Shown here: one piece after another, positions 14,454 to 22,171 of the stretch
Layout: each line of letters begins with the position of its first letter
Position numbering within the stretch: position 1 is the first letter of the stretch
Source of the DNA: Candidatus Moraniibacteriota bacterium
Lineage (GTDB): Bacteria; Patescibacteriota; Minisyncoccia; Moranbacterales; JAPLXC01
Length of the DNA: 64,000 bases
NCBI GenBank assembly: GCA_026396275.1
Contig: JAPLXC010000019.1
Coordinates: forward strand, 355 to 64,354
Direction of reading: 5' to 3'
Program-made: the position numbers and the translations under genes
Notes under the pieces: model-generated
What the model was told of the DNA's origin: nothing
Database searches by the model: none
Seen by the model: only the letters and a program-made list of their open reading frames with translations

Positions 14454-14511
14454 TGTCATCCCGAACTTAATTCAGGATCTAATTAGATTCCGGATCGAGT
14501 CCGGAATGACA
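14454..14511. mobile_element. MITE-like hairpin element family A (TGTCATCC...GATTCCGGATCGAGTCCGGAATGACA), copy 1, in the secA 5' UTR
   Basis: Terminal inverted ends TGTCAT/ATGACA with two internal stem-loops. Related copies at 19262, 46473, 52606, 54436 and 55265. Confidence 0.75.
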
Positions 14512-14520
14512 AATTTCATT

Positions 14521-17187
14521 ATGTCCCTATTTAAAAAAGTTTTTGGCTCTAATGAAAGAGAACTGAAAAAACTTCGGCCGCTAGTGGAAAAAATCAACGT
14601 GCTGGAGCCGGCTGTTAGCAAGCTTTCCGACGAAGAGCTGAAAAATAAAACAACTGAATTTAAAGAACGTTTAAATCCGCCAGCCAGTGGAGGCGAGGCG
14701 CTGGATGATTTGATTCCCGAGGCCTTTGCGGTAGTTCGTGAAGCCGCCAAACGTGTTATTGGCGAGCGGCATTTTGACGTGCAACTTATGGGCGGAATTG
14801 TGCTTCATCAAGGAAAAATCGCCGAGATGAAAACCGGTGAAGGAAAAACACTAGTATCAACGCTTTCGACATATTTAAACGCGCTTACCGGAAAGGGAGT
14901 GCATATCGTGACAGTCAATGATTATCTGGCCAAGCGTGACTGCAATTGGATGGGAGCAATATATCACGCTCTGGGAATTTCCACCGCCTGCATCGTTCAT
15001 GACACCTCTTATCTTTATGAACCAAAAATTGTTGATGCCGATGAAGTAAGCGTGGAAATGGAAAACCTCAAACCCGTTTCGCGCCGCGAGGCCTACAGTG
15101 CCGATGTTACTTACGGAACCAATAATGAATTCGGTTTTGACTATCTTCGCGACAATATGGTTCCGGGTTTAGATCAAATGACCCAGAGAGAATTAAGCTA
15201 CGCTATTGTGGATGAAGTGGATTCTATTTTAATTGACGAAGCGCGTACTCCTCTTATTATTTCCGCTCCCGACACGGAATCCACTAAGCTCTATCGTGAA
15301 TTCGCGCGAATCGTTCCGCGGCTGAAAGTCAAAGATGACTACGAAGTGGATGAAAAAATGAAAGCGGTAACTCTCACTGAAAAAGGCATTACTAAAGTAG
15401 AAGAACTGCTGGGAATCGGAAATATTTACGAGCCGGGAAAAATAACTTATGTTCATCATCTGGAGCAGTCGCTAAAAGCCAATGTTATTTTCAAACTTGA
15501 CCGCGATTACGTTGTGAAAGACGGGCAGGTGATTATCGTTGACGATTTCACGGGGCGCTTGATGCATGGCCGCCGCTACTCCGAAGGACTTCATCAGGCC
15601 ATTGAGGCCAAAGAAGGAGTAGAGGTGCAAAAAGAATCGCGCACCTTGGCCACCATTACTTTTCAAAATTATTTCCGGATGTATGGAAAACTAGCGGGAA
15701 TGACCGGAACAGCGGTAACCAGTGCGGAGGAGTTTTCCAAAGTGTACAAACTGGAGGTGATGGAAGTTCCAACCAACAAGCCAATGATCCGCAAGGATTT
15801 TCCTGACGTTGTGTACAAAAGCGAAGAGGGCAAATTCAAGGCGATTGTTGAGAAAATAAGGGAACTTCATCAGGCCGGCCAGCCGGTGCTGGTGGGAACC
15901 ATCGCCATTGAAAAATCAGAGTATTTGAGCGAACTTCTTTCCCGGGAGGGAATTACGCATGAGGTTTTAAACGCCAAGCACCATGAAAAAGAAGCTAATA
16001 TTGTGGCCAAAGCAGGGCAAAAAGGAGCAGTAACTATCGCCACTAACATGGCTGGGCGGGGTACTGATATTAAACTGGGAGAAGGCGTAAGAGAACTGGG
16101 CGGACTTTGCATAATTGGAACCGAACGCCATGAAGCCCGCCGGATTGATAACCAGTTGCGGGGACGCGCTGGCCGCCAAGGCGATCTGGGCGCGTCTCAA
16201 TTTTACGCTTCGCTCGAAGATGAATTGATGCGCCGATTTGGCGGTGATAAGCTGCACAATATGATGAATACCCTAGGACTACCCGAAGATCAGCCGATTC
16301 AGAACGCCATTATTTCCAAATCAATCGAAAGTGCGCAGTCAAAAATAGAAGGATTTAACTTTGATATCCGCAAACACGTTTTGGATTATGACGATGTGAT
16401 GAATAAGCAGCGCGAAGTTGTCTACAAAAAGCGACGCCAGATTCTTGAACTGGAGGAAACAAAAAACGAAATTTTCAACTTTCTTTCGGAGGAGCTGGAA
16501 AAAATTGTTTCCCTCTATTGTACCAAAGAGGATTACCAATGGAATACCGAAGGCATTATTGCGGAAGTCAGCACAATTTTTCCTCTTAACGGCGATGATA
16601 AAAAACAATTAGATATAATCCGGGACGATAAGTCAAAAGACGATGCCGAAAAAATCAATTCCCTGATTGAATATCTTTTAGGACAGGCGAAGAAAGTTTA
16701 CAATCAAAAAGAGAAGGAAATTGGAGAAGAAACAATGCGCCAGGTTGAGAAAATGATAATTCTCCAAACAATCGACATGCTTTGGATGAACCATCTGGAC
16801 GAGATTGATTATCTGCGCCAAGGGATAGGACTGCGCGGTTACGGCCAGAGAGATCCTTTGATTGAGTACAAAAGGGAAGCGTTCAATATGTTTTCCCACT
16901 TAATGGATAATGTCCGGTCCACCATTGTGCGGACAATATTCAGAATTAGCCCGGTCCGGCGGGAAGGCGAGCAGCGTGAATTAACGGAGCGGCAGAACTT
17001 ACAGTTTAAGGGAGCAAATGATGCGGTAGAACAGTTTGGAGCGGCTAAGGAAATGCAGTCCTCTTCAGGCGGGGAAGCAAAAAGTGAAGCCAAACAGAAG
17101 CCAATTATAAATAAAAACAAAGTGGGCCGCAACGATCCCTGCCCGTGCGGGAGTGGCAAAAAGTATAAGAAGTGTTGTGGAGCGTAG
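14521..17187 (+). CDS. secA: Preprotein translocase ATPase SecA (start revised to [18 protein letters not shown])
   Basis: DEAD-like motor motifs and a C-terminal zinc finger [14 protein letters not shown]. The ATG listed at 14506 lies inside the MITE-like element. Confidence 0.9.
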
Positions 17188-18196: not shown

Positions 18197-18664
18197 ATGA
18201 AGATTATCCAAACAGTTGCAATAATCCAAAAAGGAGATGAAATTCTTCTCGGCATGAAAAAGCGCGGTTTTGGAGCTGGAAGATGGAATGGTTTTGGCGG
18301 GAAATTAAAAGAAAATGAAAATGTAATTCAAGCAGCGCAAAGGGAGCTTAAAGAGGAAACCGGGATTGATACAGAAAATTTAATTGAAATGGGCATTATT
18401 GAATTTGAATTTAAGAGGAATCCTGATATCCTTGAAGTTCATTTTTTAAAAGGAACAGATTTTTCCGGAGCGCTGGTAGAAACAGAAGAAATGAAACCCG
18501 CTTGGTTTAAAATTAATGAAATCCCCTACGACTCAATGTGGCCGGATGATAAATTCTGGCTGCCGCTGTTTCTGGAAGGAAAAAAATTTTGCGGTAAATT
18601 CTTATTTGATAATTATAATAAAATCATTAAACATAAACTTGAGATCGTAGATAAGTTACAATAG
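18197..18664 (+). CDS. NUDIX hydrolase (MutT-like)
   Basis: Nudix box GGKLKENENVIQAAQRELKEETGI. Confidence 0.8.
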   Translation: MKIIQTVAIIQKGDEILLGMKKRGFGAGRWNGFGGKLKENENVIQAAQRELKEETGIDTENLIEMGIIEFEFKRNPDILEVHFLKGTDFSGALVETEEMKPAWFKINEIPYDSMWPDDKFWLPLFLEGKKFCGKFLFDNYNKIIKHKLEIVDKLQ

Positions 18665-18757: not shown

Positions 18758-19240
18758 ATGAAACCAAAATTTTCCTTTGAAAAATCAGTCGGTGGAGTAA
18801 TATTTTTTCAGGAGGAAAACACTATAAAATATCTTCTTCTCCATTATGAGTCAGGCCATTGGGATTTTCCTAAGGGCCATGTTGAAAAAGGAGAAAGTGA
18901 TGGAGAAACGCTGAAAAGGGAAATTCAGGAGGAAACCGGGATTACTGGCGTTGGGATTATCCCGGGATTTAAAAAACAGATTAGATATTTTTACCGGGCC
19001 GGCAAGGAAGAAAAAGAAAAAAGGATAAAAGAGGGCATTGGCACAAGCATTATCAAAAGGGTAATATACTACCTTGCCGAAACCAAAACCAAAGAAGTAA
19101 AAATTTCTTTTGAGCATATCGGCTTTGAGTGGCTGGCATACGACAACGCGTTAGAGAGAATTACCTACAAAAATTCAAAAGAAGTTTTAAAAGAAGCTAA
19201 TGATTTTTTGATAAATAATAAGCAGTTGAGCATTCTATAA
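18758..19240 (+). CDS. NUDIX hydrolase
   Basis: Nudix box PKGHVEKGESDGETLKREIQEETGI. Confidence 0.8.
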   Translation: MKPKFSFEKSVGGVIFFQEENTIKYLLLHYESGHWDFPKGHVEKGESDGETLKREIQEETGITGVGIIPGFKKQIRYFYRAGKEEKEKRIKEGIGTSIIKRVIYYLAETKTKEVKISFEHIGFEWLAYDNALERITYKNSKEVLKEANDFLINNKQLSIL

Positions 19241-19261: not shown

Positions 19262-19331
19262 TGTCATTCCTGCCTCTGAGCCGGAATCCAGAACAAATTT
19301 TTCTAGATTCCGCATCAAGTGCGGAATGACA
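19262..19331. mobile_element. MITE-like element family A copy 2
   Basis: TGTCATTCCTGCC...GATTCCGCATCAAGTGCGGAATGACA. Relative to copy 1, one stem base pair has a compensatory change (GG/CC to GC/GC). Confidence 0.75.
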
Positions 19332-19345
19332 TTAAAAAACCCCCC

Positions 19346-19579
19346 ATGACTTACAAAGGCGGAGAATATTCATTCAATGAATTATTAAAAGAGCTGAAAC
19401 AGCGGGCTAAAAAAGAATTGATACAATCCGACTACGAGTACCTGGAGTTAATTGACGGACTAATCGAAGAAAAGAAAAGCCAGGGTTATTTTTCGGAAGA
19501 CGAGGATATGGAGCAACTCAAAAGCGATCTGGAAATTATGTGGCCGGAAGTGGAAAAATATTTGCAGGATGAAAAATAG
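19346..19579 (+). CDS. Hypothetical small acidic protein (start revised to MTYKGGEYSF)
   Basis: The listed ORF start at 19319 lies inside the MITE-like element. Confidence 0.4.
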   Translation: MTYKGGEYSFNELLKELKQRAKKELIQSDYEYLELIDGLIEEKKSQGYFSEDEDMEQLKSDLEIMWPEVEKYLQDEK

Positions 19580-19636: not shown

Positions 19637-21346
19637 ATGAATATCAGGAAAAAAATCAAGATTAAATTTGCAGGAGTTTTATTTCTTGGCATAATTGCCG
19701 GGCTGATTTCGTATCCTCAAGCAATGAAATTCGCGCCGCCGTTTTATAATGCGCTTAATAAACTTAAGATAAATTTAGGCCTGGATCTTCAGGGCGGAAT
19801 ACATTTGGAATATAAAGCCGATGTTTCCAATGTTGAAAAAAGCAAAGTTAACGATGCTCTTCAGGGGGCGCAGGACGTGATTGAGCGACGCATTAATGCT
19901 TTTGGCGTCGGCGAACCGTTAGTGCAAACAGCGCAATCAGGAGGAGAACGTCGGATTGTTGTAGAACTGCCCGGAGTGAAAGACATTGAAGAGGCAAAAA
20001 AAAGAATAAAAGACACGCCTTTTTTGGAATTTAAAGAAGAGACCAGTCCCGAGGAATTGGCCAAAACCCAGGAATTATTCAATTCCTTGAATGAGCAGAC
20101 AAAAAAACAGGCAGAGGATATCCTTCAGCGCGCGCTGGCCAGTGAAAATCTTGAGGACTTGGCAAAGCAGTACAGTCAGGATCCCGGCTCTAAGGACCAG
20201 GGTGGTGATCTGGGTTTTGTGAAGAAAGGGATTTTTGTTCCTGAATTTAACAAAATTTTATTTGAAGAAAATTTAAAGCCGGGCGAAATTTACCCCAAGC
20301 TGGTTGAATCCCAATTCGGCTGGCATATTATTAAATTTATTGAATCGCGCGGGGAAGGGGATAATCTGGAGGTGCATAGCCAGCATATTCTTTTTGCCAA
20401 GCAGTCGGCGGAGATGGTTCCTGATTTGAAATATAAATCAACCGGGCTTTCAGGAAAAAATCTCAAAAGTGCCGCGGTGACCTTTACCAGCCAGGGCTTG
20501 AGTGAGCCGCAGGTTTCCCTGAAATTCGACGCAGAAGGGACAAAACTTTTCGCGGAACTTACTAAAAAAAATCTGGGGAAAACCATCGCTATTTATCTTG
20601 ATGGCACAGTTATTAGTGCCCCAGTGGTCCAGGCGGAAATCGCCAATGGTGAAGCTGTTATCACGGGAGATTTTTCCCAGGAGGAAGCAAAAGAATTGGC
20701 TCAACGTCTCAATGAAGGAGCGCTTCCGGTACCACTCACGTTAGTCGGCCAGCAAAGCGTGGAAGCGTCACTGGGAGCCGAATCTCTGAAAAAAAGTTTT
20801 GTGGCTGGCCTGGTGGGACTGGCGGCGGTGATGATCTTTATGATTTTTTATTACCGGTTCCTGGGAGTGGTGGCAGTGATAGCTCTTCTTATTTACACCT
20901 GCATAATGGTTTCCATCGTAAAATTATCCGGAACTTTCACTCCCTGGCCGATTACTCTTACCCTTTCCGGAATCGCCGGCTTTATTCTTTCCATCGGAAT
21001 GGCGGTTGATGCCAATATCCTGATATTTGAAAGAACTAAAGAAGAAATCCGAAGGGGGAGAGGCATTATGAACGCACTGGACGAAGGATTTAAGCGCGCC
21101 TGGACGTCCATCCGCGACGGCAATGTTTCTTCCATTATTACCTCTTTCATTTTAATTATGATGGGAACCGGCTTTGTTAAGGGATTCGCCGTGATGCTGA
21201 TTGTCGGAGTGCTGATTTCGATGTTCACGGCAGTGACGATTTCAAGAACGTTGCTTAGGGTTTTGGTGGGAGAGTGGATAATGGATAAGCTGTGGATGAT
21301 GGGGATTTCTGAAAAATCAAAAATCAAAAATCAAAATGAAAAATGA
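19637..21346 (+). CDS. secD: Protein translocase subunit SecD with an inserted parvulin-like (PpiC-type PPIase) segment
   Basis: SecD TM core. Periplasmic region contains [37 protein letters not shown]...[18 protein letters not shown]...HSQHILF. C-terminal KSKIKNQ heptamer insert. Confidence 0.85.
21311..21340. repeat. (AAAATCA)x3 heptamer repeat in frame at the secD 3' end
   Basis: Read directly. An inverted partner ttttgatatttgattttttatttttgatat lies at about 21385-21415. Confidence 0.85.
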
Positions 21347-21412: not shown

Positions 21413-22171
21413 ATGTTTGATATTATCTCTAAAATAAAATACGCCTACATATTCTCTGGAATACTAACAATCTTGAGCATACTTAGTTTGTTCGTTTGGG
21501 GATTGAATTTCGGCATTGATTTTAAAGGCGGAACGTTGATGGAAGTTCAGTTCAGCGCAGCTGCTCCGGGGGTCTCGGAAATTCAGGAGAAACTTAAAGA
21601 GGTACAAGTTCAGGATCTCACTATCCAGCCTAGCCAGGTAAGTTCCGTGATTTTGCGCTATTTGGCTTCAGACGAGACGCACAACGAACAAGTGCTTGAG
21701 AAACTGCGCGAATTTGATCCCGGCGCCAAACAGCTGAAAGTTGACTTCATCGGTGCTTCTGTTTCCGATCAGATCAAAAAGAACGCTATTTGGGCGATTC
21801 TGCTGGCAGTGGTGGGGATTGCGCTCTATATTGCTTGGGCTTTTCGCAAGGTCTCGCGGCCTGTTTCTTCCTGGCAATATGGGATAAACGCGGTTATCGC
21901 GCTTATTCACGACATCTTGATTACTTCTGGTGTTTTTTCAGTGCTGGGGCATTTTTTCCAAGTGGAGATCGGCGTTCCTTTTATAGCGGCGCTGCATACA
22001 TCTCTTACAGTCATTATTACGCTTCTGGCAATTTATATTTTTGGCGGGGAGTCAGTCAAATTATTTTCCCTCGCGCTTTTGATCGGGATAACTTTCGGAA
22101 CCTATTCTTCAATTTTTATCGCCTCGGCATTATTGGTTACCAGTTATAATCTAAAAGTTAAAACCCGTTAA
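21413..22171 (+). CDS. secF: Protein translocase subunit SecF
   Basis: N-terminal TM helix followed by GIDFKGGT, and a 6-TM C-terminal domain. Confidence 0.85.
   Translation: MFDIISKIKYAYIFSGILTILSILSLFVWGLNFGIDFKGGTLMEVQFSAAAPGVSEIQEKLKEVQVQDLTIQPSQVSSVILRYLASDETHNEQVLEKLREFDPGAKQLKVDFIGASVSDQIKKNAIWAILLAVVGIALYIAWAFRKVSRPVSSWQYGINAVIALIHDILITSGVFSVLGHFFQVEIGVPFIAALHTSLTVIITLLAIYIFGGESVKLFSLALLIGITFGTYSSIFIASALLVTSYNLKVKTR

Follow-up and report, generated by a model that had tools for sequence, protein, structure and literature searches.

A parvulin-type domain, apparently circularly permuted, embedded in the P1 domain of SecD from a Moranbacterales bacterium

The SecD protein encoded in a 64,000-nucleotide stretch of DNA from Candidatus Moraniibacteriota bacterium (GenBank assembly GCA_026396275.1, contig JAPLXC010000019.1, positions 355 to 64,354; hereafter the window) contains a parvulin-type peptidyl-prolyl isomerase (PPIase) domain between the base and the head of its P1 domain. 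The reading that we prefer, with a probability of about 0.7, is that P1 carries one circularly permuted parvulin, which serves as an active or a substrate-binding foldase at the base/head junction. The structural statement, that a permuted parvulin is embedded in SecD, is very likely to be correct, while a catalytic foldase function is favored with less assurance. The fusion is widespread in bacteria of the candidate phyla radiation (CPR).

The secD open reading frame (ORF) encodes a product of 569 residues, identical to a database entry (P0001) named 'MAG: protein translocase subunit SecD [Candidatus Moranbacteria bacterium]', where MAG denotes a metagenome-assembled genome; the contig of that entry has 65,439 bp. 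The protein matched the SecD model TIGR01129 with 387.6 bits against a cut-off of 244.4, its residues 47–540 covering positions 1–397 of the 397 in the profile, and the Pfam domains SecD_1st, SecDF_P1_head and SecD_SecF_C were all matched as well, the last of them over residues 372–543. By the curated criteria it is a genuine SecD. The AlphaFold model contained six transmembrane (TM) helices, at residues 3–25 and, for the other five, between residues 377 and 545. In the standard topology of SecD everything between TM1 and TM2 lies outside the cytoplasm. D458 (positions 21008–21010), located in the sequence GMAVDANIL, was invariant among homologs and corresponds, when counted from the alignment, to D340 of Thermus thermophilus SecDF, which is the TM4 aspartate of the proton path; by this alignment the proton-path aspartate of the window SecD is intact.

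The insert, 130 residues long, separates the P1 base segment from the P1 head, two segments that are only 7–60 residues apart in ordinary SecDs. In the alignment with T. thermophilus SecDF (3AQP), residues 42–135 matched T. thermophilus residues 30–118, and residues 271–554 matched residues 160–437, with the P1 head aligning from T. thermophilus residue 160. The insert takes the place of T. thermophilus residues ~119–159, which form a variable segment of ~40 residues at the base/head junction. P1 is the extracytoplasmic domain of SecDF; preproteins are bound by its head as they emerge, and the head has two forms, between which it swings. Because the P1 head is extracytoplasmic and captures emerging preproteins, the inserted domain is expected on the exit side of the translocon. 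The insert alone did not match any curated NCBIfam SecD or SecDF model, and for this reason the idea that the 993-position SecDF model NF009585, which is collinear across the insert, already holds a parvulin was rejected. No domain beyond the SecD segments and the parvulin was detected in the 569-residue protein.

The original prediction had recognized a parvulin-type segment in this SecD from three peptides, which were found again at residues 174–210, at residues 216–233 and, for HSQHILF, at residues 247–253. The profile searches bore out this assignment, as Rotamase_3 (E = 1e-22, 81.3 bits against a cut-off of 22.5) and Rotamase (E = 6.7e-20, 72.3 bits against a cut-off of 21.7) both matched residues 152–237 well above their cut-offs. 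The best sequence matches of the insert in the PDB were the second parvulin domain of SurA (parvulin-2), PrsA and PpiC, and the insert was closer to the active parvulin-2 of SurA than to its inactive parvulin-1 (44.7 versus 18.5 bits). The isolated insert (residues 136–266), modeled by AlphaFold from an alignment of 120 homologs, reached a mean predicted local distance difference test score (pLDDT) of 94 and a predicted template modeling score (pTM) of 0.87, and showed the helices, strands beta2 to beta4 and a trailing strand. In the model of the full-length protein the pLDDT of this region was ~79–88. A Foldseek search of the PDB with the insert placed PPIases on top, with probability 1.0 for 8hm4, PrsA (6vj4) and the archaeal parvulin CsPin (2rqs). 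The match to 8hm4_B (E = 2.3e-7) extended over 107 columns with a root-mean-square deviation (rmsd) of 2.2 Å, that to CsPin over 77 columns with an rmsd of 1.9 Å, and the PrsA proteins of Bacillus anthracis and Listeria were also among the matches. The earlier suggestion that the segment folds independently as a rotamase-like domain thus agrees with the model scores and with the fold matches.

The domain is not part of a PrsA or a SurA protein. The PrsA equivalog models were matched over the parvulin part only and far below their cut-offs (NF002846, 57.3 bits against 361; NF002827, 52.3 bits against 343), and the SurA model NF008038 gave 52.1 bits against 394. No SurA_N domain was matched in the window SecD, which has a single parvulin core only. 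Neither a lipobox nor an NC domain was present, the N terminus being TM1 of SecD and both flanks of the parvulin being segments of SecD P1.

The strand order of the domain differs from that of canonical parvulins. All parvulin profiles began past strand beta1, with Rotamase_3 matched over positions 33–115 of 116, Rotamase from position 15 of 97, and the PpiC model NF011969 over positions 14–90 of 93. In the model, a long helix (residues 138–167) led from the base strand of SecD directly into alpha1, and no beta1-type strand preceded the core. A strand containing the sequence EVHSQHILF (residues 245–254) instead followed beta4 (residues 228–238, the GWHIIK strand) in both AlphaFold models, with a six-residue turn between the two. 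In the isolated insert this trailing strand had a pLDDT of ~96–98 and was the hairpin partner of beta4. The canonical order beta1-alpha1-3-beta2-alpha4-beta3-beta4 was therefore absent from the SecD parvulin, and the partly permuted order of blocks that the original prediction had noted was upheld. In canonical parvulins such as Pin1 and Par10, beta1 and beta4 are antiparallel neighbors which bear the two catalytic histidines. Because of this neighborhood, a beta4-turn-beta1 hairpin is the geometry expected of a permutant.

The alignment with SurA pointed in the same direction. The insert was collinear in HMMER with residues 173–273 of Escherichia coli SurA, that is with the core of parvulin-1, the interdomain linker and beta1 of parvulin-2, and the trailing strand was aligned with this beta1. 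When the strand was spliced before the core, the Rotamase_3 score rose to 91.3–93.7 bits, compared to 84.5 bits for the core alone and 86.2–87.7 bits for control splices with shuffled, reversed or unrelated strands, and the Rotamase match then covered positions 1–96 of 97. Moving the whole C-terminal tail of the insert to the front, or doubling the insert, left the Pfam match at its former length, which is explained by the ~30 linker residues that these constructs leave between the strand and alpha1. Taken from models and sequence, the conclusion that the SecD parvulin is a circularly permuted variant and not a canonical member of the family is well supported.

The residues expected of an active parvulin were conserved among the 120 homologs. 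H230 in beta4 and H250 in the trailing strand were each present in 120/120 sequences, as was F209, while D191 was found in 115/120 and F204 in 116/120, so that the SecD parvulin has both a His/Asp/His set and a hydrophobic proline pocket. We take H250, H230 and D191 to correspond, by homology, to H59, H157 and C113 of Pin1. In a broader sample of 28 diverse fusions of the single-domain type, both histidines were kept in 20 proteins and both were lost in five, and the trailing histidine was never kept where the histidine of beta4 was lost.

The most likely origin of the permuted unit is a tandem-parvulin arrangement of the SurA kind that was excised or duplicated out of register. An out-of-register cut through a tandem parvulin (beta1-core-beta1-core) would yield a core-beta1 unit, and the SurA alignment (173–273) has exactly this frame. 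Because beta1 is encoded last, in a hairpin after beta4, both ends of the insert lie at the former beta1/alpha1 loop, and such a unit could be spliced into SecD. In the tandem forms found in CPR bacteria the order is a degenerate first core, beta1, a second core and a last, degenerate strand. The histidines of beta1 and of the second core were each present in 117/118 of these proteins, while those of the first core and of the last strand were not kept. This pattern of conservation suggests that the intact pair makes up one domain and the degenerate pair another, with a canonical parvulin nested in a degenerate permuted one.

The original prediction treated a single protein and did not capture the large and varied CPR family to which it belongs. 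Rotamase domains were present in all 120 closest homologs (66–79% identity; NCBI, JGI, ENA and Logan). Among the 150 best representatives of 50%-identity clusters, taken from an exhaustive search, 70 had a parvulin at the base/head junction of P1, where the other 80 had none. Of these 70, 15 were single-domain forms like the window SecD and 55 were longer. SecD forms of ~655–705 residues (P0128-P0135, P0138, P0140, P0145) contained a degenerate first core without histidines, a canonical full-length parvulin (Rotamase 1–97 of 97) and the trailing strand, and the same tandem layout was found in SecDF fusions of ~1000–1100 residues (P0147, P0150, P0155, P0270-P0388), a class that belongs to Candidatus Peregrinibacteria and Gracilibacteria. 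Proteins of 780–940 residues had still larger inserts between base and head. In P0156, P0170, P0204 and P0180 (780–1119 residues) the inserts were 340–475 residues long and consisted of a full-length parvulin and extra, unassigned sequence, with an apparent hydrophobic stretch within the insert of P0170. P0288 (962 residues) and P0292 (978 residues) were 56–57% identical to the Peregrinibacteria tandem SecDF at 78% query coverage and had no Rotamase Pfam match; they may have lost the insert secondarily.

In a scan of GTDB species representatives with a five-sequence alignment, 12 loci carried the single-type fusion; the remaining 68 loci, from other phyla, were parvulins that stood alone. The 12 fusion loci belonged to Moranbacteria, Buchananbacteria, Parcubacteria and Patescibacteria bins and to three bins without a CPR label. 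These three, L003 (DATGZC010000075.1), L005 (CAYIMB010000009.1) and L006 (JAACEG010000012.1), were labeled Bathyarchaeia, Gammaproteobacteria and Lysobacteraceae, and their SecDs were 51–61% identical to the Moranbacteria protein. They are probably mis-binned CPR contigs and not cases of horizontal transfer. L022 (Pyrinomonadaceae), which matched up to query residue 196, was rejected as a non-CPR fusion, since its ORF contained no SecD segments. Nearly all named sources of the fusion were CPR bacteria, and several of the contigs that carry it were longer than 1 Mb. The annotation of this architecture was inconsistent, with the names SecD, SecF, 'SecD/SecF fusion protein' and 'foldase protein PrsA precursor' all in use, the last of them for the homolog P0050 (bacterium BMS3Abin15).

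Most probably the embedded domain serves as a foldase or chaperone tethered at the site where secreted chains come out. The parvulin would isomerize prolyl bonds in the chains leaving SecYEG, or would at least bind their unfolded segments, and with the domain beside the P1 head emerging secretory proteins would meet a prolyl isomerase or chaperone at once. A coupling of secretion to prolyl isomerization, as the original prediction proposed, can reasonably be inferred from the position of the domain and from its conserved catalytic residues; its further proposal, that the fusion would replace a separate PrsA-like lipoprotein, was not supported. A further-reaching proposal holds that the foldase has been merged into the proton-driven SecDF motor, so that the head hands chains to the prolyl isomerase, and that this pull-and-fold machine, built with a naturally permuted parvulin, replaces free chaperones of the PrsA, SurA and PpiD type in many minimal genomes. 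We regard this extension as doubtful. The window and the flanking 3-kb stretches of the 12 related loci, a small sample, encoded no second parvulin, and a survey of CPR genomes annotated PrsA in all CPR classes (PMC9166423). Some of these annotations may be mislabeled SecD fusions, as in the case of P0050.

Several observations weigh against parts of the preferred reading. The orientation of the insert relative to the P1 head is uncertain, as the full-length model had a pTM of only 0.51, and the SecF of the window as assembled is without its essential arginine, so that either the motor may be impaired or the assembly is wrong. The main rival is a folded but catalytically silent parvulin that acts only as a holdase surface or as a structural spacer on P1. 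Well-folded parvulin domains can be inactive, as are those of PpiD and parvulin-1 of SurA. The five of the 28 single-type relatives that lost both histidines also lost F204 and still retain the domain, the aspartate position is variable in the Peregrinibacteria class, and the tandem forms retain a clearly degenerate first core, all of which means that isomerase activity is dispensable in some lineages. These losses support a silent domain for the lineages concerned, but not for the family of the window SecD, where the two histidines, D191 and the pocket residues are near-invariant and where the domain resembles the active rather than the inactive parvulin of SurA. For the window protein we therefore consider a silent domain unlikely, while giving it more weight than any of the alternatives that follow. 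It is improbable that the trailing EVHSQHILF strand is a remnant of a deleted second parvulin or a linker to the P1 head, which would leave a truncated, three-stranded parvulin and no permutant. The tandem relatives do have a canonical beta1 after their first core, the gain from undoing the permutation was modest (~4–6 bits over the controls), and the placement of the strand in the beta1 slot, although well supported, was derived from the secondary-structure pattern, hairpin geometry and sequence and not from a superposition of model coordinates. A remnant would nevertheless hardly keep H250 in every one of the 120 homologs and lose it only along with the histidine of beta4, nor would it be the confidently modeled hairpin partner of beta4 within a compact domain; in addition, the base-head gap of ordinary SecDs, which can be as short as 7 residues, does not accommodate such a strand.

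Two other explanations were given still less weight. The parvulin could act on SecD itself, on a proline of the base-head hinge or as a latch on the swing of the P1 head. The chain passes between base and head at two places, one of which holds the insertion, and P262 of the following linker was kept in 101/120 homologs. Nothing, however, points specifically to such a role, which we consider very improbable: the nearest relatives of the domain are the general secretion foldases PrsA and SurA, and the length and copy number of the inserts vary too widely to fit a precise hinge mechanism well. The fusion could also be an artefact of assembly or gene calling that joined a PrsA-like gene to secD, as the source is metagenome-assembled and the adjoining secF looks damaged. 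This explanation was rejected and retains hardly any probability, because the insert lies in frame in the middle of P1 and not at a gene boundary, and because the same fusion is found in independent assemblies, in the 120 closest homologs and in the 12 GTDB species representatives alike.

The preferred reading, a foldase within SecD P1, can be compared with several known systems. Canonical SecDF proteins (T. thermophilus, 3AQP and 5YHF; Deinococcus radiodurans, 5XAN) belong to the same family as the window SecD and share its layout, from TM1 through the two P1 subdomains to the other five TM helices, as well as the TM4 aspartate and an adjacent secF, and differ in having the variable ~40-residue segment where the window SecD has the 130-residue parvulin domain. 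PrsA of Firmicutes (Bacillus subtilis, 4WO7), one of the top matches of the insert in both sequence and fold, likewise belongs to cells with a single membrane, where it is an extracytoplasmic foldase of the parvulin type on the outer membrane face, and its parvulin is likewise inserted into another domain. It is, however, a dimeric lipoprotein in its own right, which has an NC chaperone domain and the canonical strand order, whereas the window parvulin has SecD as its host and is apparently permuted. SurA of E. coli (1M5Y) gave the best PDB sequence match, with collinearity down to the pattern 'RGE..N..EVHxxHIL', but it is a soluble protein with an N-terminal chaperone module and two canonical parvulins, whereas the window SecD has one domain that takes its beta1 from a downstream position. 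SurA was reported to contact the Sec holotranslocon (PMC9987972).

The same logic of a parvulin at the exit site is found in PpiD-YfgM of E. coli, which contains a membrane-anchored parvulin protein. PpiD is a separate, single-pass binder of SecYEG with a catalytically inactive parvulin, whereas the window parvulin is a covalent part of SecD and has kept its catalytic set. PpiD-YfgM docks on the Sec translocon and assists translocation (PMC9643414). In the wall-less minimal bacterium Mycoplasma pneumoniae, Mpn444 and Mpn436 are surface PPIases of the parvulin type, and Mpn444 crosslinks to SecD, on top of which it has been modeled (bioRxiv 10.1101/2024.09.05.611430). Both are large lipoproteins in their own right and associate non-covalently, while a gene fusion makes the association permanent in the CPR proteins. 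PrsA, PpiD-YfgM, SurA and Mpn444 fill, as separate translocon-associated proteins, the role proposed here for the SecD parvulin.

Table 1. Coordinates of secD, its segments and residues, and the neighboring sec genes in the window
Feature	Residues	Position (nt)	Strand	Basis or remark
secD including embedded parvulin	1–569	19637–21346	+	ORF, 569 aa, exact bounds
TM1 helix	3–25	19643–19711	+	AlphaFold helix over hydrophobic stretch
P1 base (N-terminal segment)	76–135	19862–20041	+	PF21760 SecD_1st, E 3.7e-18, 65.2 bits; ends in PFLEFKEE
Whole insert	136–265	20042–20431	+	Linker/extended helix, parvulin core, trailing strand, short linker
Parvulin core	152–238	20090–20350	+	alpha1-3, beta2, alpha4, beta3, beta4; Rotamase_3
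D191	191	20207–20209	+	Within core
F204	204		+	Within core
H230	230	20324–20326	+	Within core
Putative relocated beta1-equivalent strand	245–254	20369–20398	+	Contains EVHSQHILF; carries H250
H250	250	20384–20386	+	In trailing strand
P1 head subdomain	266–365	20432–20731	+	PF22599 SecDF_P1_head, E 8e-32, 109.9 bits
TM2-TM6 bundle	372–545	20750–21271	+	PF02355; five long model helices
secF	252 aa	21413–22171	+	SecD partner; TIGR00966, 175.8 bits, in two stretches
secA		14506–17187		Upstream of secD

The genes around secD include further sec genes (Table 1). As assembled, secF has a clean, in-frame internal deletion of 47 residues (141 nt), with the junction PFIAAL/HTSLTV at residues 194/195 (about nucleotides 21992–21997). 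The missing block, LTILGYSVNDTIVVYDRIREN...SLNETLARSI, was intact in all nine related loci that were aligned, and it holds the residue equivalent to the essential R671 of T. thermophilus SecDF, so that an intact SecF with this arginine is not encoded in the window as it stands. The deletion is either an assembly error of the MAG or a trait of a population with a crippled SecF. Two adjacent ORFs between a purM-like gene and secD (18197–18664, 155 aa, and 18758–19240, 160 aa) both contain motifs that resemble a Nudix box, for example GGKLKENENVIQAAQRELKEETGI. Directly upstream of secD, where yajC is often located, lies an acidic ORF of 86 residues (19319–19579), in which no hydrophobic segment and no significant Pfam match were found.

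SecD and parvulins are familiar protein families, and proteins of this kind already receive both Pfam domains from automated annotation pipelines; in the open-access full-text literature no description of a SecD-parvulin fusion or of a circularly permuted parvulin was found. Because these fusions are variously annotated as SecD, SecF or 'PrsA precursor', censuses of secretion chaperones in CPR bacteria may miscount them. The parvulin chaperones PpiD, SurA, PrsA and Mpn444 have been tied to Sec by crosslinking, co-purification and modeling, and the conservation of a covalent fusion throughout a very large bacterial radiation provides independent evolutionary evidence for SecD P1 as a site of foldase work. 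The SecD-parvulin protein would offer a compact, one-polypeptide model for the coupling of translocation to folding, with no transient complex to reconstitute. The permuted parvulin itself would be a clean natural case of circular permutation by way of an out-of-register tandem repeat, and would show how a domain can be re-wired into a form that is insertable into another protein.

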